DNA of 14,317 nucleotides from a virus: the UHGV virus genome UHGV-0064133. The stretch is one strand, 5' to 3'. This document shows, piece after piece, positions 1,530 to 14,317 of this stretch. Within the stretch, counting starts at the first letter, position 1. Every line of letters begins with the position of its first letter. A model generated the notes under the pieces. The model did no database searches, had not been told where the DNA came from, and saw nothing but the letters and a program-made list of their open reading frames with translations. The position numbers and the translations under genes are program-made.

Positions 1530-1867
1530 GCTCTCACCCCATATACGCTTAAAATTCGCTTCATAGCCGCGCTGTTGCGGCACTCCTGGCAGATCACGTT
1601 TGCCTCTGTACGCTGCACCAGCTTCGAATTTCCCTTCGGCATAGCCGGGATTGTTTCTGGTGCGTATTTCATGCCGTAATCGGTCAGCCGATAAAGCCGC
1701 TGTCCGTGCTTGCCTTCGAACTCGATCAGGCCGTCTGCAAACAACGTACTTAACGGGCCGGAAATCTTTTTGGTGGTCATGCCGATCATCCTGGCAATGA
1801 AAGCACTATTCAGGCCCGGGTTATTACGCAGGGCTGCAAGAATCTGCCCACGAATTGTTATGGTCAT
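1526..1867 (-). CDS. hypothetical small DNA-binding protein (winged-helix-like)
   Basis: 113-aa ORF; N-terminal ILAALRNNPGLNSAFIARMIGMTTKKISGPLSTLFADGLIE resembles a winged-helix fold; start overlaps the stop of the DnaC-like gene at 1864-1867. Confidence 0.45.
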   Translation of the reverse strand: MTITIRGQILAALRNNPGLNSAFIARMIGMTTKKISGPLSTLFADGLIEFEGKHGQRLYRLTDYGMKYAPETIPAMPKGNSKLVQRTEANVICQECRNSAAMKRILSVYGVRA

Positions 1868-2718
1868 GCTGCCCCCTTAGAACGGTAAGAATCCCACGTG
1901 AATGACAGAGTGCACCCGCCTCCATCGCTCATGCGATCAAGAACGCGTTCGCCGATGAATGCAGCCAGTTCTTCCCGGGTCTGGTTGCTGATCAGGATGG
2001 TCGGCTTCATCCGCTCGTACCGGGTGTTGATGATTTCGAACATGATCAGCTTCTCGGCCTCGCTGCCGAACTGGACGCCAACCTCGTCGATGATCAAAAG
2101 GTCCGGAGTGGTGAAGTGCGCAATCACGTCGTTCTCGCTGCGCGTCGCAGTTTTCGACCACGTTGATTTGAACTCACGGGCAATCTTCAGCGCGGTGGTA
2201 AAAATTACCGGGCTCTGGTGTTTCTCGATGACATCACGGGCGATCGCCAGGGCAAGGTGGTTTTTACCGGTTCCCGGCTTGCCGCACATCACCAGACCAC
2301 CTCCCTGCTTCAGCCGCTCGGGCCACTTAGCGGCATACGCCTGACAAACCCGCAGCGCACGTTCTGACTCCTTGCCAACCGGCTGATAGTTTTCCAGCGT
2401 GCACGTCACAAAGCGCTCAGGGATTTCGAGCTGACGCAGCAGGCGATCGATGTTCTGCTGGCGAGTGCGGTCTTCCCAACGCTTTTTCTCGTCATACAGG
2501 AAGCTCAGCTCATCGCGAAGGCAGCCCGGACAACGAGTCGGCGGCGACGGCAGCTTGATTAGGCTGCTGGTAAGCACGCGTTTACGCTGTTCGTATTCGC
2601 CGTGTTTCTCGCAAAGCACCGTTTCGAAGACGGTCTCGCAGTTAGGGAGTTGCTCTGGCGGCCTGCCGAGAACTTCCAGCATTTTTTCGATAGCGTCGAT
2701 TTTTTCGAGCAGCTCCAT
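1864..2718 (-). CDS. DnaC-like replicative helicase loader (AAA+ ATPase, lambda P functional analogue)
   Basis: Walker A GKPGTGKNHLALAIA and Walker B LLIIDEVG; DnaC/IstB-type architecture. Start set at ATG 2718-2716 (RBS GAGGGA 6 nt upstream, 2 nt after the stop of the O-like gene) rather than the track start at 2736. Confidence 0.85.
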   Translation of the reverse strand: MELLEKIDAIEKMLEVLGRPPEQLPNCETVFETVLCEKHGEYEQRKRVLTSSLIKLPSPPTRCPGCLRDELSFLYDEKKRWEDRTRQQNIDRLLRQLEIPERFVTCTLENYQPVGKESERALRVCQAYAAKWPERLKQGGGLVMCGKPGTGKNHLALAIARDVIEKHQSPVIFTTALKIAREFKSTWSKTATRSENDVIAHFTTPDLLIIDEVGVQFGSEAEKLIMFEIINTRYERMKPTILISNQTREELAAFIGERVLDRMSDGGGCTLSFTWDSYRSKGAA

Positions 2719-2720
2719 AC

Positions 2721-3575
2721 TCAGTCCCTCGCCCATGACGGGATTTCAGTCTGGCCATAGTCCTTGCCAGCGAAGTTCTCGGATACGCGAGTCTGATTGC
2801 GGGCTGGCTGCTTGATGCCTTTCGGTTCAAACAATCCCTGCCAGCCGTTCGCAATGCTCTGGTTGATGATTTCTTCAGGCTGGTATCCGCTGCACTTGCA
2901 ACGCTCAAGCAGGTTGATGGCCTGGGTTACCGTCTGCTGAGACTTAATCGGTTTCTTCAGGTCGCGACGATAATCGACCCATGACTTCCAGACTGAAACT
3001 GACAGCCATTCAGGAAGGTCAACACCAGCCGGATCGAACGAAGCCGGTTTGGGGGATTTAGGGGGTTTATTAATATTGTCTTTATTGTCTTTTGTATGTT
3101 TGTCTTTTGTGTTTACCTTATTTGGGTAAGTGTCGTTACCTGATTCGGGTAAACATTCCTTACCTGATTCAGGTAAATTTACCTCTTTCAGGTAACGTTT
3201 ATTTTCATTACCTGTTTTTGGTAATTTCACCCATTCACTAACCGTTTTGTTAATGCCGACAGAACGCCCGATTTGGGTAAATACTCCACGCTTCACTAAC
3301 GAGCTTTTAGCAGCAGAGCATTTGTGCGGAAGAATGCCGGTGAGGGCAGATAACTGATCGTTACTAACCCAGTCAGCTTTTTTGTTGAAACCGTATGTTT
3401 TACGCATTACAGCCATGAAGACCAGCAACTGATGCTGAGACAATCCAGCCAGCATGACAGCCTCCAGAAGTTCATTGGCAATACGCGTATAGCCATCATC
3501 AAGATCTGCCACGCGCGGCTCCACGACCTGCAAATCAGGCCTGATTGGTGAGATATTGTTAATTGCTAAGTTCAT
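2721..3575 (-). CDS. phage replication initiator / replisome organiser (lambda O-like N-terminus, DnaT/DnaD-like C-terminus)
   Basis: Track ORF 2721..3659 trimmed to ATG at 3575-3573 (RBS GGGGAGG upstream). C-terminal [27 protein letters not shown]...[10 protein letters not shown] matches the primosomal DnaT-like domain common in phage O proteins; iteron array lies inside the gene, as in lambda O. Confidence 0.8.
3113..3224. repeat. origin of replication iterons: five copies of TTACC-N7-GGTAA inside the O-like gene, flanked by an AT-rich tract (3062-3112)
   Basis: Read directly: ttaccttatttgggtaa (3113), ttacctgattcgggtaa (3136), ttacctgattcaggtaa (3160), ttacctctttcaggtaa (3179), ttacctgtttttggtaa (3208); adjacent T-rich segment ttaatattgtctttattgtcttttgtatgtttgtcttttgtg. 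Same architecture as lambda ori inside gene O. Confidence 0.65.
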
Positions 3576-3753
3576 CAGCAGCCTCCCCGCCTTTCTTGAA
3601 GATGATTTCGACACAAAGCAGAATGCAGTTATCGCAGATAGCAACGCCTGGACCGGCAACTATGGTTTTCACGTCGCTATCGATATTGCTTCTGTCGCAG
3701 AAAGAGCATTTATGAGTTGCGTGCTGATTTGCCTTTTCGTTTATTACTGGCAT
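3559..3753 (-). CDS. small ClpX-type C4 zinc-finger protein (stand-alone ClpX N-terminal domain homologue)
   Basis: Sequence [38 protein letters not shown] aligns with the ClpX N-terminal zinc-binding domain ([36 protein letters not shown]). Start set at ATG 3753-3751 (RBS GGGAG 5 nt upstream); the track ORF starts at an upstream GTG (3780). Confidence 0.6.
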
Positions 3754-3838
3754 ACTTACTCCCGTTACTTGGCGTAACACAGTGTGATAAGGGCCTTTGA
3801 AGTGACCGCTTCAAGGGCTTTTTCTTTTCTGGTGCCTC

Positions 3839-4384
3839 TCACATGACCCCCAACATCGAAGTGACCATCGTCATCAGCGGGCCTACCTGCTCCGGCATGA
3901 GGCGGAACAGCGACGCTATACCCTCGCTTACCTCTTTCAGCTTCTGATGCTCTGGAGCGTCCAGCAGCACGGCCTGTTTAGCCTCGGCACACTCTTTCAT
4001 CGCAGAGGCGATCAGCGACATCGTGTCGTTCTGCGGCGCCAGACGGTTTCGGTACTCCAGCGGCAGGACCGACATGATTGCCGGGGCCAGCTGGCGAATG
4101 TTGTTGGCGGCGTATTCGGTATCGCCATCAATCCATCGAAACACTTTCTGCATCTGGCGGTGCGAGTCAGTCGGGATATCCAGACCGGTTCCGCCGGACG
4201 CCCGCCACTCTTCCACGATCAGCGCGGCGACAAATTCACGGCTTCGGCAATCAGCTGCCCAGGCGCGAACAGCAGCGCGGATCCCATCGATGTTTAACGC
4301 CGCGGAATCAGGCTCCCGGCGATTCTGGTAAATCATCGCCGTTGGCGAAAATTTGTTACCTTGTTGATACGCAAGTGAATGCAT
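3839..4384 (-). CDS. phage regulatory protein, CII(CP76)/YdaT-like
   Basis: 181-aa ORF directly downstream of the cro-like gene; RBS AAGGGAAAG; segment QKVFRWIDGDTEYAANNIRQLAPAIMSVLP resembles what I recall of Rac YdaT and the CP76 family. Assignment is from memory, not a search. Confidence 0.55.
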   Translation of the reverse strand: MHSLAYQQGNKFSPTAMIYQNRREPDSAALNIDGIRAAVRAWAADCRSREFVAALIVEEWRASGGTGLDIPTDSHRQMQKVFRWIDGDTEYAANNIRQLAPAIMSVLPLEYRNRLAPQNDTMSLIASAMKECAEAKQAVLLDAPEHQKLKEVSEGIASLFRLMPEQVGPLMTMVTSMLGVM

Positions 4385-4752: not shown

Positions 4753-5463
4753 ATGAGTAGCATTTCTGAAAGAATTAAATTTTTACTGGCAAGGGAAGGC
4801 TTGAAGCAGCGGGATTTGGCTGAGGCTTTGTCGACTAGCCCACAGACCGTCAACAACTGGATAAAAAGAGACGCGTTAAGTCGTGAGGCGGCGCAACAAA
4901 TATCTGAAAAATTCGGTTATTCTCTTGACTGGTTATTAAATGGAGAGGGTTCTCCAAAGAAGGATCTGGAGAGCAACATCCCGCCAGAGTCTGAGTGGGG
5001 AGTTGTTGATGCATGGGATAAAGACACCCCGCTTCCTGTTGATGAGGTTGAAGTGCCATTTCTTAAGGATATTGAATTTGCGTGTGGTGATGGTCGAGTT
5101 CAGTGCGAAGACCACAATGGATTTAAGCTGAGATTCTCCAAGGCAACGCTCAGAAGAGTGGGTGCAAATAGTGATGGTTCTGGAGTGCTTTGCTTTCCCG
5201 CTTCTGGTGACAGCATGGAGCCCGTTATTCCTGACGGCGCAACGGTAGCAGTCGATACAGGCAACAAGCGGATTATTGACGGCGAACTCTATGCTATTAA
5301 CCAGGGCGATTTAAAGCGCATAAAGCAGCTTTATCGAAAGCCTGGTGGGAAGCTATTAATACGAAGCATCAATCGCGATTATGACGATGAAGAGGCTGAT
5401 GAGGCAGATGTCGAGATAATCGGTTTTGTGTTCTGGTACTCGGTATTGCGATATCGCCGATAA
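4753..5463 (+). CDS. CI-like prophage repressor, XRE-type HTH plus S24 (LexA-like) autopeptidase domain
   Basis: N-terminal HTH (LKQRDLAEALSTSPQTVNNWIKR); C-terminal S24 motifs GDSMEP (Ser nucleophile) and ELYAINQGDLKRIKQL (Lys). Start set at ATG 4753 (RBS GGAGGG 4 nt upstream) rather than the track start at 4699. Confidence 0.85.
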   Translation: MSSISERIKFLLAREGLKQRDLAEALSTSPQTVNNWIKRDALSREAAQQISEKFGYSLDWLLNGEGSPKKDLESNIPPESEWGVVDAWDKDTPLPVDEVEVPFLKDIEFACGDGRVQCEDHNGFKLRFSKATLRRVGANSDGSGVLCFPASGDSMEPVIPDGATVAVDTGNKRIIDGELYAINQGDLKRIKQLYRKPGGKLLIRSINRDYDDEEADEADVEIIGFVFWYSVLRYRR

Positions 5464-8095: not shown

Positions 8096-8383
8096 ATGGA
8101 AATCGTAAAAATCGAAATGAACCTGAAAGCAGTGAATAAAGAAGTGGCTGCATTCAACTGCGAGAAGAAAGTATCAGGCGTTATTCACTCAACTACAAAC
8201 GGTGAAACAACAGTCATTCTCGACGGTGGCTATGTGCTTGGCAAGTTTGATTGCCCGCACTGCGCCATTGAGGAGATCAGCTTGCTGGCACTCAAAATCA
8301 GCGATAGCGATTACGCCGGCTGGGGAACCTACCGTACATACAAGCAAGATTTTATGAATGAGGCGATCGTAGCCGTCAGTTAA
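8096..8383 (+). CDS. hypothetical protein (95 aa), immediately upstream of recE-like gene
   Basis: RBS GGAG upstream of the ATG; contains a CPHC motif; occupies the racC position of Rac-like prophages. No family assignment. Confidence 0.5.
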   Translation: MEIVKIEMNLKAVNKEVAAFNCEKKVSGVIHSTTNGETTVILDGGYVLGKFDCPHCAIEEISLLALKISDSDYAGWGTYRTYKQDFMNEAIVAVS

Positions 8384-8523
8384 GCGAAAGCCCACCGAAG
8401 TGGGCCCGCCATGTCCGGCCTCACCGACCAAAGTTACACCGGAAACAACATTAAAACCAAAGTTAACCCAATGGGCGCTATCAATGGTCCGGGGATTCTA
8501 ACACCCAAAAAAGAGGATCTCAC

Positions 8524-11433
8524 ATGGAATTTTTCCATCTGATAAAAGCCAGTCAGAAGTCTGGCAAGAAAGATGCAGTGATTTGGTTCACTGCGAAAAG
8601 TGTAGCGCGCGCCAATCTCCAACTCGATGTGGCACTGGAAGAAGCCGGAATTGAAGAAACTGGCCGCGGTAAAGATTATGCCAAACCAATCCGCACCGAT
8701 TTCCCGGTATATGACGACCTGCCGGAAGAAGGCGCAGTGGATTACACCTGGTGCGAACGCTACGAACTGCAGAACGATGACCGCACCTGGCTGCCAAAAG
8801 TCACAGCTGAAAACTCTGACGAGAAAACGGCTCAGACCGTTGATAGTCACATAACTACTGAGTCAACGCTGCCAGAAACCGCTGGCATCACGCTGGACGA
8901 ACACGACGACGACTCAACCCTCTACCCGGTAGTGCAGATGCCGTTTCGTAAGCAACTGCTTTCCCAGTTCACCGCCGACGAACTGCGCCACCACGTAACC
9001 CACGAAGAGTACGAAGCTATCGGCGCGCTGGAGATGGACACTGATAACAGTTACGTCCAGAACTTGCTGTTAGCTGCTGAGAACTGCCCGGAAGTGAAGG
9101 GTTACGACACCAAAGACCTGTGGCGCTACACCGATGCCATTCGCAAAGTGTTCAGCCAGGACAAGCGTCACGAACTCGCGCTGGTACTCCGTTTCACCAG
9201 AATGTGGGCGGCGACTGATTACATTGACCGTGGCATCCTGGCGCGTGAATGGGCCGCCGGTAATCGCATCAGTAGTGTGCAGCGTACTGATTCCGGCACT
9301 AATGCCGACGGCGGTTACGTCACTGACCGTGGACCTGACGCACACCACACACTGGACACTCTCGATTTAGAGATTGCGTGTGCCCTTCTGCCTATGGACT
9401 TCAACCACTTCGAGATCCCGGGCAGCATTCTTCGTCGCGCTAAAGAAATCGTGACCAAAAAAGAAGAACCATGGAAATCATGGAGCAACATCCTGCGCAA
9501 TCAGCCAGGCGTTCTGGGTGTTAACCGCACGGCTATTTTTAACCTGGTACGTATCGCACCGGAAAATATTCATTTAACTCCTGTCGCTCACCTGGAATTT
9601 GTTAACCAGACCATGACAGCCGCGTTCAATTCCGCGGTCGAGTTATTGCCGTTGCATGAGGCTGAACCCGCAGCACAGGAAATTCCCCAACCTGAAGGTA
9701 AGGAGTCTCCGCGCAAATCCTTCTGCACTCACGAAGAGAACCTGCAACGCGTGCGTGAAGAAGGAGCACGCCGCCGCGCAGAGGAAGCGGCAGCACAACC
9801 GCAGAAAGTCGAACAAGAACTGGTTAAAAATGTCGGCAACGGAATATTCGACGTTACGGCTTTGCTGCAGAACTCAGCAACTCATGGCACGAAAAAGGCT
9901 ACGGAGACCACCAGCAATGTGCAGGTTCAAGAAACTGTCAGTGATGAAAAACAAGCTGGTGATGAAGTACAGCCAGGCGAAAGCAGTCTGGAGTCTGGTG
10001 AAGAGTCAGATACCAGCCAGAAGGACGATGTAGACCAGAATACGGATTCTGTCGCCAAAAATAGCGATTCTGTAAGCCAAACCGAACCAGTTGCAGCACA
10101 AACCGAGCCAGAAGCGCAATCTGACGAACCAGCTGTTGTTTATCCCGCTTATTTCGAGCCAGGCCGCTATGAAGGGCTGCCAAACGAGGTTTACCACGCC
10201 GCCAACGGCATCAGCTCAACCCAGGTGAAAGATGCGCGCGTTTCGCTGATGTACTTCAATGCGCGCCACGTAGAGAAAACCATCGTCAAAGAGCGCTCAG
10301 CGGTGCTGGACATGGGCAACTTGGTGCATGCGCTGGCGTTGCAGCCTGAACTACTGGACGCAGAATTCAGCGTTGAACCGGTGATCCCTGAAGGCGCATT
10401 CACAACGGCCGCGACCCTGCGCGCCTTTATCGATGAGCACAATGCCAGCCTGCCGGCGCTGCTGTCTGCCGACGACATCAAGGTGTTACTGGAAGAGTAC
10501 AACGCCACCCTGCCGCCGCAGGTTCCGCTTGGCGCTAACCTGGAAGAAACGGCACAGAACTATATGGCGCTGCCAGCTGACTTCCAGCGTATTGATGGTG
10601 ACCAGAAGCAGACGGCGACGGCAATGAAGGCATGCATTAAAGAGTACAACGCCACCCTGCCGCCGCCGGTTAAAACCAGCGGCAGCCGTGACGCGCTGCT
10701 GGAGCAGTTGGCAATCATCAACCCTGACCTTGTGGCTCAGGAAGCACAGAAACCGGCACCACTGAAAGTGTCCGGTACCAAAGCAGACATGATCCAGGCC
10801 GTGAAGGCAGTCAAACCAGATGCCGTATTTGCCGACGAACTGCTGGATGCCTGGCGCGATAACCCGGAAGGAAAAGTGCTGGTCACCCGCCAGCAGCTGA
10901 GCACCGCGCTGAATATTCAAAAAGCGCTTCTGGCACACCCGACCGCCGGCATGCTGCTGACCCACCCTAGCCGAGCCGTTGAGGTGAGCTACTTTGGTTT
11001 TGACGAGGAGACGGGCTTGGAAGTTCGTGTGCGCCCTGACCTTGAGATCGACCTGGATGGCGTGCGTATAGGTGCAGACCTGAAAACCATCAGCATGTGG
11101 AATGTTAAGCAGGAAAGCCTGCGCGCCAGGCTACACCGGGAAATTATTGAACGTGATTATCACCTGAGCGCGGCTATGTACTGCGAAACCGCAGCGCTGG
11201 ATCAGTTCTTCTGGATTTTCGTCAACAAAGACGAGAACTACCACTGGATCGCCATCATCGAGGCATCCGCTGAACTACTGGAGCTGGGTATGCTCGAGTA
11301 CCGCAAAGCGATGCGCAATATCGCAACCGGATTCGACACAGGTGAATGGCCAGCGCCAATCACTGCTGACTACACCGACGAACTGAACGACTTCGACCTG
11401 CGCCGCCTTGAAGCGCTGCGTACTCAGGCATAA
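8524..11433 (+). CDS. recE: RecE-like exodeoxyribonuclease VIII (large 5'-3' dsDNA exonuclease with C-terminal PD-(D/E)XK domain)
   Basis: N-terminal DAVIWFTAKS...FPVYDDLPEEGAVDYTWCERYEL and DYIDRGILAREWAAGNRISSVQRTDSGTNADGGYVTDRG match what I recall of E. coli RecE; C-terminal RPDLEIDLDGVRIGADLKT fits the PD-(D/E)XK nuclease motif; RBS AAGAGGA. Confidence 0.8.
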   Translation: MEFFHLIKASQKSGKKDAVIWFTAKSVARANLQLDVALEEAGIEETGRGKDYAKPIRTDFPVYDDLPEEGAVDYTWCERYELQNDDRTWLPKVTAENSDEKTAQTVDSHITTESTLPETAGITLDEHDDDSTLYPVVQMPFRKQLLSQFTADELRHHVTHEEYEAIGALEMDTDNSYVQNLLLAAENCPEVKGYDTKDLWRYTDAIRKVFSQDKRHELALVLRFTRMWAATDYIDRGILAREWAAGNRISSVQRTDSGTNADGGYVTDRGPDAHHTLDTLDLEIACALLPMDFNHFEIPGSILRRAKEIVTKKEEPWKSWSNILRNQPGVLGVNRTAIFNLVRIAPENIHLTPVAHLEFVNQTMTAAFNSAVELLPLHEAEPAAQEIPQPEGKESPRKSFCTHEENLQRVREEGARRRAEEAAAQPQKVEQELVKNVGNGIFDVTALLQNSATHGTKKATETTSNVQVQETVSDEKQAGDEVQPGESSLESGEESDTSQKDDVDQNTDSVAKNSDSVSQTEPVAAQTEPEAQSDEPAVVYPAYFEPGRYEGLPNEVYHAANGISSTQVKDARVSLMYFNARHVEKTIVKERSAVLDMGNLVHALALQPELLDAEFSVEPVIPEGAFTTAATLRAFIDEHNASLPALLSADDIKVLLEEYNATLPPQVPLGANLEETAQNYMALPADFQRIDGDQKQTATAMKACIKEYNATLPPPVKTSGSRDALLEQLAIINPDLVAQEAQKPAPLKVSGTKADMIQAVKAVKPDAVFADELLDAWRDNPEGKVLVTRQQLSTALNIQKALLAHPTAGMLLTHPSRAVEVSYFGFDEETGLEVRVRPDLEIDLDGVRIGADLKTISMWNVKQESLRARLHREIIERDYHLSAAMYCETAALDQFFWIFVNKDENYHWIAIIEASAELLELGMLEYRKAMRNIATGFDTGEWPAPITADYTDELNDFDLRRLEALRTQA
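10435..10666 (+). repeat. in-frame internal repeats within the recE-like gene
   Basis: Exact 25-bp repeat gagtacaacgccaccctgccgccgc at 10495-10519 and 10642-10666 (147 bp apart, 49 codons), plus a degenerate copy gagcacaatgccagcctgccggcgc at 10435-10459; peptide-level repeats EHNASLPA / EYNATLPP / EYNATLPP. Confidence 0.65.
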
Positions 11434-11438
11434 GGGGA

Positions 11439-12557
11439 ATGATGATGGAAAACACGAATATCGTAACCGCTGAGCAGCAGACTCCAAACACGATCTCAGC
11501 CAGCAATGCCATTTTCAACGTGCAGGCTTTAACCCAGCTTCAGTCTGTCGCCGGGTTGATGGCACAGGCAGCCGTAACGGTGCCTGAGCACCTCCGCGGC
11601 AATCCGGCAGACTGCATGGCCATCATCATGCAGGCGATGCAGTGGGGTATGAACCCTTACGCCGTGGCGCAAAAGACGCACCTGGTTAACGGTGTCCTGG
11701 GATACGAAGCGCAACTGGTTAATGCGGTGATCTCCAGCTCAAACGCCATCGTTGGCCGCTTTCACTATGAGTACGAGGGCGACTGGTCGAAATGTGCCAG
11801 CAGCCGCGAGATAACCGTTAAAAAGCCTGCGAAAGGTGGCGGGACGTACGACAAGAAAGAAATGGTACGCGGTTGGGAAAGTGCTGATGAACAAGGACTG
11901 TCGGTACGGGTAGGTGCCGTTATTCGCGGTGAAAGTGATATCACCTGGGGAGAGCCTGTTTTCCTCTCCAGCGTAATCACACGTAATTCTCCACTTTGGG
12001 TATCAAACCCGAAACAGCAGATCGCTTATCTGGCACTCAAATACTGGGCGCGCCTGTATTGCCCTGCAGTTGTTCTTGGTGTGTACACCCCTGATGAGAT
12101 TGAACAGCGCACAGAAAAAGAGATCAACCCAACGCCGCAACGCGTTAGCCTGGCTGATATCTCAGGTGACACCGTCACAACCACGCAAAGCGCACAGGAA
12201 TCGTCGGTAAATGTCGACTCTCTTGCCGATGATTTCCGCGAACGCATCGAATCTGCTCAGGACGTGGATAGCGCCAAATCGCTGCGTGCCGACATTGAAA
12301 CGGCGAAAGCTACGCTGGGATCCGCACTATTCACCGAGCTGAAAAACAAAGCCGTAAAGCGTTATTACCTAGTGGATGCACGCAACAAGGTTGAGGAGGC
12401 TATTAAATCCCTGCCCCAGCCCGACGAGCCGCATGCAGCCGAACGGTTCGCTGAAGCCGAGCGCATGCTTGCATCTTCAAAGCGTCACTTAGGCGATGAA
12501 CTGCACGATCAATTCAGCATCACCCTGGCGGATATGAAACCGGAATACGTGGCCTGA
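11439..12557 (+). CDS. RecT/Redbeta(Bet)-family single-strand annealing protein (probable)
   Basis: Directly downstream of the recE-like gene (5-nt gap); segment NPADCMAIIMQAMQWGMNPYAVAQKTHLVNGVLGYEAQ resembles the Redbeta/RecT core (compare lambda Bet DAQFIALLIVANQYGLNPWTKEIYAFP); three consecutive ATGs at the start, true start may be 11442 or 11445. Confidence 0.6.
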   Translation: MMMENTNIVTAEQQTPNTISASNAIFNVQALTQLQSVAGLMAQAAVTVPEHLRGNPADCMAIIMQAMQWGMNPYAVAQKTHLVNGVLGYEAQLVNAVISSSNAIVGRFHYEYEGDWSKCASSREITVKKPAKGGGTYDKKEMVRGWESADEQGLSVRVGAVIRGESDITWGEPVFLSSVITRNSPLWVSNPKQQIAYLALKYWARLYCPAVVLGVYTPDEIEQRTEKEINPTPQRVSLADISGDTVTTTQSAQESSVNVDSLADDFRERIESAQDVDSAKSLRADIETAKATLGSALFTELKNKAVKRYYLVDARNKVEEAIKSLPQPDEPHAAERFAEAERMLASSKRHLGDELHDQFSITLADMKPEYVA

Positions 12558-12879: not shown

Positions 12880-13077
12880 ATGGATGATATTTTGGTAACG
12901 TCAGACCTGACCAGTCGCTACAAAATTTCACGCAAAACCCTTTGGTCATGGCAAAGTGCAGACACAATGCCTCGGGGCTTCGTATGCCCGTTCCCACCCC
13001 CTGACTGGCCCGGCAACCCTAACCGCTGGCGCTCTGAGTCAATCAAAGAGTGGGAGGATAAAAAGAAGATAAATTAA
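12880..13077 (+). CDS. AlpA/excisionase-like small DNA-binding protein
   Basis: [24 protein letters not shown] resembles the AlpA/Xis-type HTH N-terminus; start set at ATG 12880 (RBS GGAGAG upstream) rather than the track start at 12835; adjacent to the integrase. Confidence 0.6.
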
Positions 13078-14267
13078 CTGAAGGGCTCTCCGATGATCTC
13101 TTCAAGATGGCTCTGCCAAACGCGGAGCCAGTGTTTCTGATCATCGATATAGTCATGAAGGTTGTAATGCGCCATAACCCCCACCATCTGATGCCCGAGC
13201 AGCTTTTCAATTACGTGCGGCGGGCAACCTAACTCAGAGAGATTTGTGGCTATCGTCCGCCTCATATCATGAAGCGACCACTCTGCCATACCTGTTCCAT
13301 TCCAAATAGAACGGGCGTAATTGGATGCCACAGGTGAATGAACGGGCGAATCTTTGATCCCGCCATCAATTTTACGTTGTGAAGTCACCAGGTGATTGGT
13401 GTTTATTTTCTTGAGGTGATTTCTGACCAGGTTAACGGCGGCGTCTGAGAGTCCCCTTCTAATATGTACCCGAGTTTTATAACTGCCCGCAGGCACGACC
13501 CACTCATTATCATCCAATCGAAACCATGATCTCTCACTAAGTCGAATCTCAGCCGTACGGCATCCGGTAAGCATAATAAATTTCACCAGGAAAACGGACT
13601 CTATCGACATATGGCTTTTCAACCACTGATAGATTTTGCGCAGATCGTCATCGTCCATCCTGCGAGTTCTCTTTTTAGGCTTTTGCCCGACATCAGATGG
13701 CAGTAATCCCTCGAGTGGGTTTGAGGCGATCACACTTCTGTTAACGCAGAACCTAAACGCCCGTTTGCACAGCGAAAGCATGTAATGAGCCATCACCCTG
13801 CTTTCTATAGAATCGAAGACGTTGATCCAGTGCATTTTCGCTGTGTTATCGACTTTGACATTCTTCATCGGTTCGGCGATATGTTTCTCAAACACCTGGC
13901 GATAGTAATCGACTTTAACTAGCCCGTTAGCGATACAGTGCCTTTCAATCCAGTAATTGAACGCTTCGGCAACGGACATCGCTTCCTGTCGGGTCTGCTT
14001 ATCCAGCTTCACCTGCTCTCGCGGATCCAGTCCCTCAGTTAACCAGTTTCTGAATTGTTGGCGACGCTCTCTTGCCTGGGTGATACTCATTGCAGGATAA
14101 TCACCAACATTGAGTTTTACCGCTTTACCGGCCCAGCGATACCGATAGAAAAATGATATTTTTCCGGCCTGGCTGATTCTGGCGTTGAGCCCGTGCGAAT
14201 CAGAAATAATCTCGATATCATCTCTTTTCTTGCCGAGCGCCTTCCTGAGCTTTGTGTCGGTGATCAT
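13074..14267 (-). CDS. int: tyrosine recombinase / phage integrase (P4-type, N-terminal arm-binding domain)
   Basis: N-terminus [13 protein letters not shown]...[24 protein letters not shown] matches the P4-like integrase arm-binding domain; C-terminal catalytic region HDMRRT...[18 protein letters not shown] with R, H-x-x-R and Y. Start chosen at ATG 14267 by analogy with IntS/IntA N-termini; the track ORF extends to 14312. Confidence 0.9.
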
Positions 14268-14317
14268 TGAATGGGTACACATTTTTGTTTTTGGGTACAC
14301 AAAAGTGTACACAAAGT

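Follow-up and report, generated by a model that had tools for sequence, protein, structure and literature searches.

Why should a phage carry, immediately in front of its replication initiator gene, a free copy of the domain with which a host unfoldase docks its substrates? The question is raised by a small gene of the virus genome UHGV-0064133, from which one stretch of 14,317 nucleotides (hereafter, the window) was analysed. The gene lies at 3559-3753 on the minus strand (ATG at 3753-3751, TAA at 3561-3559), consists of 64 codons, and its product of 64 amino acids is a stand-alone zinc-binding domain (ZBD) of the ClpX type that lacks the ATPase. It opens onto the gene of an O-like replication initiator of 284 amino acids (2721-3575, minus strand), which matches PF04492 (Phage_rep_O) with 115.7 bits and TIGR01610 with 87 bits and belongs to phrog_678. 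Our answer is that the ZBD protein probably controls how ClpX(P) handles the initiator.

The identity of the domain was established by profile and structure comparisons. The protein matches the Pfam profile PF06689 (zf-C4_ClpX) with 45.5 bits (gathering cutoff 27; E 7e-12) over profile positions 2-38 of 39. This bears out a preliminary description of the sequence, where the protein had been taken for the C4 zinc-finger N-domain of ClpX without its AAA+ module, and all the motifs quoted there are present: C16-S-F-C19, A33-G-P-G-V-A-I-C40-D-N-C43 and L46-C47-V-E-I50-I51. The zinc ligands C16, C19, C40 and C43 align with Cys15, 18, 37 and 40 of ClpX. When 52 unique family members were aligned to ClpX, the first three ligands were conserved in all 52 and the fourth in 50; C47 is an additional conserved cysteine of the helix. 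A phmmer search of the PDB returned ClpX chains only (6sfw, 1ovx and 2ds5; E 4e-8 to 4e-7). The AAA+ module is absent: the NCBIfam ClpX equivalogs NF003745 and TIGR00382 are matched over model positions 2-50 only, with scores of 34.2 bits (cutoff 359) and 33.1 bits (cutoff 370.75).

The predicted fold agrees with this assignment. We used an AlphaFold2 (AF2) model built from a 60-sequence alignment, and discarded as unusable a single-sequence model whose predicted local distance difference test score (pLDDT) was 43. The model retained has a pLDDT of 83-91 over residues 11-50. It superimposes on the E. coli ClpX ZBD 2ds6_A with a root-mean-square deviation of 0.6 Å over 40 columns and a template modelling score, relative to the target, of 0.86; taking 2ds6, 2ds5 and 2ds8 together, deviations are 0.6-1.5 Å at 45% identity. 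In a structure search with the same model, the best match outside ClpX had E > 1. Moreover, since the ratio of nonsynonymous to synonymous substitution (dN/dS) in the core of about 40 codons is 0.06-0.23 across relatives, with synonymous sites saturated, the open reading frame is a real, selected gene. A mirror reading frame on the plus strand (3556-3777) was dismissed as an artefact of the ZBD stretch.

The position of the gene ties the domain to replication. We examined 96 loci, comprising this window, two Klebsiella phages, five species genomes, eight assembly contigs and 80 IMG/VR contigs, and found the ZBD gene directly 5' of a replication initiator in 96/96, whatever the initiator family, the loader or the upstream gene. 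The placement beside the initiator pointed out in the preliminary description is thus a property of the whole set. The linked initiators belong to at least three unrelated families, with two further loci having an initiator outside the reference classes, and the ZBD subtype tracks the initiator type. So does the junction, which is always a 17-nucleotide overlap with Phage_rep_O initiators, a 14-nucleotide spacer with "MRDY..." initiators of about 300 amino acids, and an overlap of 20-37 nucleotides with HTH_36/DnaD_N initiators. The gene after the initiator encodes a DnaC-like loader, a lambda-P-like loader or a DnaB-type helicase. Upstream of the ZBD gene there may be a YdaT-type gene, a Phage_CII-type gene, an HNH gene, an 83-codon open reading frame or a DUF2740-like one, and ZBDs that are 98-100% identical follow differing upstream genes (YdaT, Phage_CII, the 83-codon frame) across contigs. 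The extra small genes (83-codon, DUF2740-like, HNH) always stand upstream of the ZBD gene and none was found between it and the initiator. The YdaT/CII-like gene, which is the upstream neighbour in the window (3839-4384, minus strand; PF06254, 95.9 bits; phrog_163, CII-like), is therefore outside the conserved ZBD-initiator unit.

This arrangement bears directly on two other explanations. Lambda cIII is a small inhibitor of the protease FtsH that stabilises CII, and the ZBD protein, encoded between a CII-like gene and O, could be a comparable modulator of lysis and lysogeny, guarding the upstream CII/YdaT-like regulator from proteolysis. However, identical ZBDs follow different regulators, and genes may intervene between CII and the ZBD gene, never between the ZBD gene and the initiator. 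We set this candidate aside as very improbable because the upstream neighbour is not conserved. The preliminary description had also named lysogeny proteins among the possible targets, and nothing in our analysis points there. The second explanation takes the gene for unrelated cargo in a recombination-prone slot that opens the replication module, with a function apart from both replication and ClpX. It draws on the fact that phages lacking the ZBD often have another small open reading frame that overlaps the initiator start by 8 nucleotides, and that the ZBD gene is optional and sometimes decayed. Yet cargo would have to combine specific homology to the ClpX recognition domain with strong purifying selection, and to sit next to the initiator even where other small open reading frames are present, which makes this explanation scarcely credible.

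One small open reading frame of that slot recurs in our material. It encodes about 49 amino acids (...RFYQDEVHKN(V/I)IR(V/D)RFL...), with a weak DUF2740 match in locus L092, and was seen in the IMG/VR loci L423, L419, L496, L492, L460, L448 and others. In ZBD-less phages it overlaps the start of an O-type initiator by 8 nucleotides, while in ZBD-bearing phages it stands just 5' of the ZBD gene. From these two placements it follows that the initiator start is a recurrent site of small accessory genes.

Reading signals at the junction are consistent with joint expression. A Shine-Dalgarno-like GGGAG (3759-3763, minus strand) precedes the ZBD ATG by 5 nucleotides. The 3' end of the ZBD gene overlaps the initiator start by 17 nucleotides (3559-3575, minus strand; initiator ATG at 3575-3573), as had been noted before and as can be read from the sequence, and the overlap is kept in 9/9 distinct ZBD/O-type junction sequences examined. 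The ribosome-binding site of the initiator, GGAGG (3582-3586, minus strand), lies 6 nucleotides before the O ATG, within the ZBD tail codons K-K-G-G-E-A, and this accounts for part of the composition of the disordered tail. In an alignment with a ZBD-less E. coli relative, the ZBD start codon falls exactly where translation of O begins in the relative. The ZBD gene thus uses the ribosome-binding region that serves the initiator in phages lacking the ZBD; the match of the window to phi80 ends at 3751. Judging from the sequence, the 17-nucleotide overlap is compatible with translational coupling. We rejected a programmed frameshift joining the ZBD to the initiator: the O gene does lie in the +1 frame, yet no slippery site was seen, and the MRDY-type loci have a stop and the 14-nucleotide spacer.

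How widespread is such a gene? An exhaustive HMMER search found 2,962 representative clusters with the domain, which include true ClpX and many proteins with 2-5 tandem ZBDs. At 90% identity, the stand-alone proteins of 55-93 amino acids that make up the close family fall into about 90 clusters; the genera represented are Klebsiella, Salmonella, Citrobacter, Enterobacter, Raoultella, Serratia, Leclercia and Pluralibacter. A word-indexed search with the single protein had returned 3 clusters only; as an alignment query gave 545 matches, the single-protein search understated the family. Its signature is PTHKCSFCGxxN..V..IAG(P/D)GV(S/C/A)IC(D/Q)(E/K)CV(F/L)xCV(E/D)I(V/I)F. Among the best 80 IMG/VR relatives per initiator, the ZBD gene precedes 13/80 O-type and 50/80 MRDY-type initiators, and 5/36 of the HTH_36 type. 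Two points can be regarded as settled: the gene encodes a selected, stand-alone ZBD of the ClpX type, and it stands, though not in every phage, at the head of the lambdoid replication module, where it is co-expressed with the initiator.

Annotation pipelines already recognise both the domain and the gene family. NCBI names the family "ClpX C4-type zinc finger protein" only, and related PHROGs families are labelled "protease" or unknown. In Klebsiella phage ST846-OXA48phi9.2 (L002; MK416022.1), the ZBD gene at 5001-5189 is annotated as a 51-amino-acid hypothetical protein on the wrong strand (QBP07687.1), and homologues in further phage records are called 'protease', 'Clp protease' or 'ATP-dependent Clp protease ATP-binding subunit'. 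From the wrong-strand call and these protease-type labels, we conclude that the family is systematically mis-annotated or over-annotated. We found in the literature no functional study of such a phage ZBD protein. As far as we could find there, what is new is the invariant coupling to the initiator, the re-specified surface and the XB-like initiator N-terminus described below.

Outside the close family, free ZBDs occur in other settings. Pseudomonas phage phi1, a D3-like phage (L174; KT887557.1), has at 5004-5201 a more distant stand-alone ZBD of about 43% identity, likewise in the replication region, yet two genes downstream of 'replication protein P'; related Pseudomonas phages carry a ZBD too. 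Several proteins that are not ClpX (P0004, P0045, P0059, P0124 and P0118) contain 2-5 tandem ZBD repeats, some of them fused to further domains. Partners among ten longer ZBD proteins are AAA+ (true ClpX fragments), TPR, a DksA-type zinc finger with NusA_N, and a helix-turn-helix (HTH) domain with Clp_N. The protein with HTH and Clp_N has two ZBDs and therefore unites the N-domains of two different Clp ATPases with no ATPase. Free Clp recognition domains may form a wider regulatory class. We looked among the same ten proteins for a Rosetta-stone fusion of the ZBD to initiator, helicase or primase domains, and there was none.

The reason to connect the gene with proteolysis comes from lambda, where degradation of O by ClpXP is a classic case of regulated proteolysis in phage replication. 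The preliminary description had started from lambda O as a ClpXP substrate, and published work agrees: degradation of lambda O needs the ClpX ZBD, the ClpX recognition sequence is at the O N-terminus, and a hydrophobic patch near F16 and I46 of ClpX is common to lambda O, TF, SspB and RssB (PMC7804408). In our alignment F16 is kept in 52/52 family members, and I46 is isoleucine in 44/52 and otherwise methionine, valine or leucine. The ClpX-like helix residues V41, L43, C44, I47 and I48 are also conserved, which is compatible with dimerisation of the ZBD type. At other positions the family departs from ClpX: Y35 is replaced by S, C or A, and the polar helix positions D42, N45 and R49 become F/L, V (52/52) and F (50/52). 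By sequence, then, the family retains the zinc site, the core and the general hydrophobic patch, and has a surface of its own.

A second line of evidence is the N-terminus of the initiator. ZBD-less O proteins (lambda, HK225 and an E. coli prophage) start with MxNTAxxxNF, the lambda O type. The ZBD-linked O proteins, nine distinct sequences whose bodies are 37-57% identical, all start with M(N/S)(L/I)Axxx(I/V)(S/T)PIRPxL(Q/E)(V/A)VE. The overlap with the ZBD gene covers the first six O codons only and, because the codons of P-I-R-P and of the following L vary synonymously among the nine sequences, the peptide is conserved at the protein level. The C-terminal ClpX-binding peptide of SspB, XB, is RGGRPALRVVK; it is bound by the ZBD of ClpX and inhibits lambda O degradation (PMC3983244). 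The stretch R-P-x-L-x-V-V of the O N-terminus (initiator residues 8-19; 3519-3554, minus strand, placed by alignment of O N-termini) is in register with it. In the unique open reading frame products of all fetched loci, 1.0 M residues in total, the motif was counted 24 times, and 23 of the 24 are these O N-termini. Comparing the two N-terminal types, the ZBD gene was found in 13/13 versus 0/67 close relatives and in 17/74 versus 0/67 overall (Fisher p = 7e-6, a value that ignores relatedness). Among O proteins the ZBD is therefore found only with the PIRP-type N-terminus, but it has no exclusive claim on this N-terminus, which is a variant found in the O family at large.

On this basis we hypothesize, tentatively and at a little less than an even chance, that the ZBD is a decoy or shield that competes with the ClpX N-domain for the initiator and so modulates its recognition by ClpX(P). 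Expressed from the early rightward operon, the ZBD is produced alongside the initiator, probably through translational coupling across the 17-nucleotide overlap. Free ZBD, probably dimeric like the ZBD of ClpX, would then occupy the site of the new initiator that is recognised through the N-domain, which in O-type initiators may be the XB-like N-terminal peptide. Its binding would delay or tune the capture of the initiator by ClpXP, or its remodelling by ClpX, and the pool of active initiator might in consequence be raised or timed. We infer dimerisation, initiator binding, and the effect on ClpXP and its direction. The proposal is founded on lambda O being a ZBD-dependent ClpXP substrate while the F16/I46 patch is kept, on a gene placed for stoichiometric co-translation with the initiator, and on the XB-like peptide that O-type partners carry where lambda O has its degron. 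It is also founded on the constant position directly 5' of the initiator while the upstream gene varies, on the strong purifying selection of the core, and on the Clp-related company (HTH, Clp_N and two ZBDs) that the domain still keeps outside ClpX. The interpretation given in the preliminary description, a decoy, adaptor or inhibitor modulating recognition by ClpXP, is supported in part.

Several observations weigh against a decoy or shield. The gene is dispensable: HK225 and phi80 have none, and DNA searches of complete E. coli genomes found the window and Klebsiella subtypes in 0/5,426 and the Salmonella subtype in 1/5,426. Decayed copies exist, in which zinc ligands have become S, F, Y or W, a stop interrupts the frame (one case), or 7 amino acids (VLIAGPG) are deleted in frame; they are found in seven of our loci (L003, L105, L137, L143, L145, L166 and L280) and in Salmonella phage SW-37 (L004, 3977-4168), and this decay suggests relaxed selection in some resident prophages. 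The initiator side is not exclusive either. We had considered the ZBD and the new O N-terminus to be one exclusive cassette, which fits the close relatives but fails the reverse test, as 57 of the 74 evaluable IMG/VR loci encoding PIRPxLxVVE have no ZBD, with another small open reading frame or nothing upstream. In MRDY and HTH_36 initiators the N-terminus does not change with the presence of the ZBD, and the lambda-type degron MxNTAxxxNF is absent from the ZBD-linked O proteins. On the ZBD side, binding of the MqsA degron depends on ClpX residues L12, L13 and H23 (numbered with Met1), and that of the SspB tail on H23 (PMC8808172). In the family L12 is replaced by T and L13 by H in 52/52 members, Y14 by K/R, and H23 by I, V or N in 44/52. 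With L12, L13 and H23 replaced, the phage ZBD does not simply reproduce the ClpX docking site, and as the docking surface is altered, binding of an XB-like peptide cannot be assumed. The uniformity of the ZBD core over three initiator families suits a constant, host partner at least as well as the initiator. Finally, we found in the literature no binding or degradation data for such a ZBD.

The altered surface can be accommodated by a narrower form of the decoy proposal. Here the ZBD would have been re-specified, through T-H-K/R and a new hydrophobic helix face, as one half of a private decoy pair with the co-translated initiator, in the O-type case via the XB-like peptide. Shielding the initiator from ClpXP, such a pair would act as a dose- or time-dependent replication switch. 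We consider this form possible but doubtful.

The same surface changes can be read without ClpX. The zinc ribbon might be a replication accessory that works as a small dimeric clamp or chaperone on the initiator, or on a shared component of the replisome or origin; for instance, it could help the initiator to oligomerise at the origin or form a link with a host factor. The strict linkage to the initiator, whatever the loader type, would follow directly, and so would a surface unlike that of ClpX (D42 to F/L, N45 to V and R49 to F, leaving one helix face hydrophobic, and L-L-Y to T-H-K/R); the ClpX ZBD fold is besides a general peptide-binding module. However, it would then be a coincidence that a ClpX recognition domain stands beside homologues of the ClpXP substrate lambda O, and the F16/I46 patch used for lambda O is kept. 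The lack of fusions to initiator, helicase or primase domains among the ten longer proteins also speaks against an accessory, as does the optional status of the gene in all three initiator families. We judge such a role unlikely, though still a serious contender.

The near-uniform core, in turn, is what a general antagonist of the host ClpX N-domain would display. Residues 12-52, including T-H-K/R, V48 and F52, hardly vary across three unrelated initiator families, and the helix residues kept from ClpX are compatible with dimerisation. Acting on a constant host partner, this core would shift ClpXP specificity cell-wide in early infection or induction; several phage proteins might be stabilised, or the ClpXP-dependent activation of toxin-antitoxin defence blocked, and adjacency to the initiator would provide early, dosed expression only. 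A protein of phage SPO1, Gp53, is a precedent in acting on ClpC (PMC6873191). Still, the loss of the L12/L13/H23 pocket used by SspB and MqsA makes sequestration of SspB-type adaptors unlikely, and an antagonist of this kind would not predict initiator adjacency in 96/96 loci while other small genes move. Nor did any family of the PADLOC-DB defence models match at E <= 0.01; with no PADLOC match and no supporting context, a defence or anti-defence role was rejected. Lambda rexB is said, in the title of a cited report, to protect lambda O, which would favour general antagonism. All in all, we find this explanation rather improbable, though with the accessory role it is one of the two main rivals of the decoy. 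We also considered a link to SSB, which activates mycobacterial ClpX; it was dropped, since that work does not map the effect to the ClpX N-domain (PMC7847540).

The surroundings of the gene show what kind of phage carries it. Identity to phages HK225, mEp237 and phi80 is about 96% over large parts of the window, and the closest protein matches come from Enterobacter and Pseudocitrobacter; the window belongs to a temperate phage, or prophage, resembling phi80 and HK225. The minus-strand order is Cro-like HTH, YdaT/CII-like, ZBD, O-like initiator, DnaC-like loader, winged-helix and Ead/Ea22 genes, with an S24 cI-like repressor on the plus strand before the Cro-like gene. The loader (1864-2736, minus strand), the next gene of the replication module, matches PF01695 (IstB/DnaC-like) with 63.6 bits and belongs to phrog_50; against NF005931 (DnaC) it scores 150 bits, under the equivalog cutoff. 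A Phage_rep_O gene followed by a loader, downstream of an immunity region of the cI/cro/cII type, is the layout of a lambdoid replication module. The other side of the window has KilA-N, YdaE-like, RecE-like and RecT genes and an integrase. The RecE-like protein of 969 amino acids (8524-11433, plus strand) and the RecT-like one of 372 (11439-12557, plus strand) are annotated as RecE/exonuclease VIII and RecT in records of HK225, mEp237 and Klebsiella phages; together with the integrase (13074-14312, minus strand) they are usual for phi80/HK225-like phages.

Non-coding features were also noted. The Rfam model of isrB, an Hfq-binding small RNA, matches over its full length at 8385-8482 on the minus strand (38.2 bits, gathering score 35), within the gap between a 95-amino-acid open reading frame (8096-8383) and the RecE-like start (8524). 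On the plus strand, antisense to the early operon, a strong hairpin of 15 pairs (3789-3822) is followed by TCTTTTCT, with a tail to about 3832. It lies between the YdaT/CII-like stop (3839) and the ZBD start, a placement like that of the terminator of the lambda oop antisense RNA; no promoter-like site for an oop-like antisense RNA was found on either strand between 2600 and 5000. Copies of the 53 nucleotides at 3748-3800, with 96-98% identity, occur in 77 E. coli genomes, including K-12 derivatives; in K-12 the copy is probably the Rac prophage.

What would these results mean? A widespread, selected copy of a docking domain that always precedes the initiator gene suggests a level of control not described before, in which the phage may supply its own competitor for a host receptor. 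Existing ClpXP assays allow this competitor idea to be tested directly. If the private decoy pair is real, this would be the first phage regulator known to copy the substrate-docking domain of a host unfoldase. Should the competitor idea be confirmed, the ZBD would be a natural, genetically encoded modulator of ClpX specific for the N-domain, useful for controlling targeted degradation tools based on the ZBD-XB contact, and there would be an explanation for a small gene that keeps recurring, under wrong annotations, in the prophages of Enterobacterales of clinical importance. If the protein instead acts independently of ClpX, the ZBD gene would still add a new accessory factor to the lambdoid replication module.

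The closest known counterpart is the ClpX ZBD itself. The phage protein shares with it the C4 zinc site, a predicted treble-clef-like fold within 0.6-1.5 Å of the crystal structures at about 45% identity, and the extra helix cysteine and F16/I46 patch that binds lambda O, TF and adaptors. Unlike ClpX, it has neither the linker nor the AAA+ module and thus cannot by itself unfold or deliver a substrate, and in their place it has a short disordered tail whose codons hold the ribosome-binding site of the initiator. With SspB the likeness is on the side of the initiator: ZBD-linked O has R-P-x-L-x-V-V, as in XB, in the N-terminal region where lambda O keeps its ClpX recognition signal. Unlike in XB, the basic residues R162 and K165 are replaced by Q/E and E in the O peptide, and the motif is N-terminal rather than C-terminal and is present also in O of many ZBD-less phages; its binding to the ZBD is putative.

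Among phage proteins, lambda RexB reportedly prevents degradation of lambda O (Schoulaker-Schwarz et al. 1991, as cited in PMC11077077). The role proposed for the ZBD would likewise be a phage-encoded protection of the initiator from ATP-dependent proteolysis by the host, yet RexB is a membrane protein of the immunity region, expressed in lysogens, whereas the ZBD is a small domain of soluble type encoded in the replication module. Lambda cIII, T4 PinA and T7 Gp4.5 are phage inhibitors of FtsH and Lon, acting as competitive substrates or direct inhibitors. As we propose for the ZBD, they are small phage proteins that shield other proteins by interfering with a host AAA+ protease; to our knowledge, none of the three copies a protease recognition domain. 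SPO1 Gp53, finally, is an adaptor-like phage protein that binds the ClpC ATPase (PMC6873191) and, as the ZBD might do, retunes a host Clp/Hsp100 protease in infection. Gp53 mimics an adaptor, whereas the ZBD mimics the receptor domain of the unfoldase itself.

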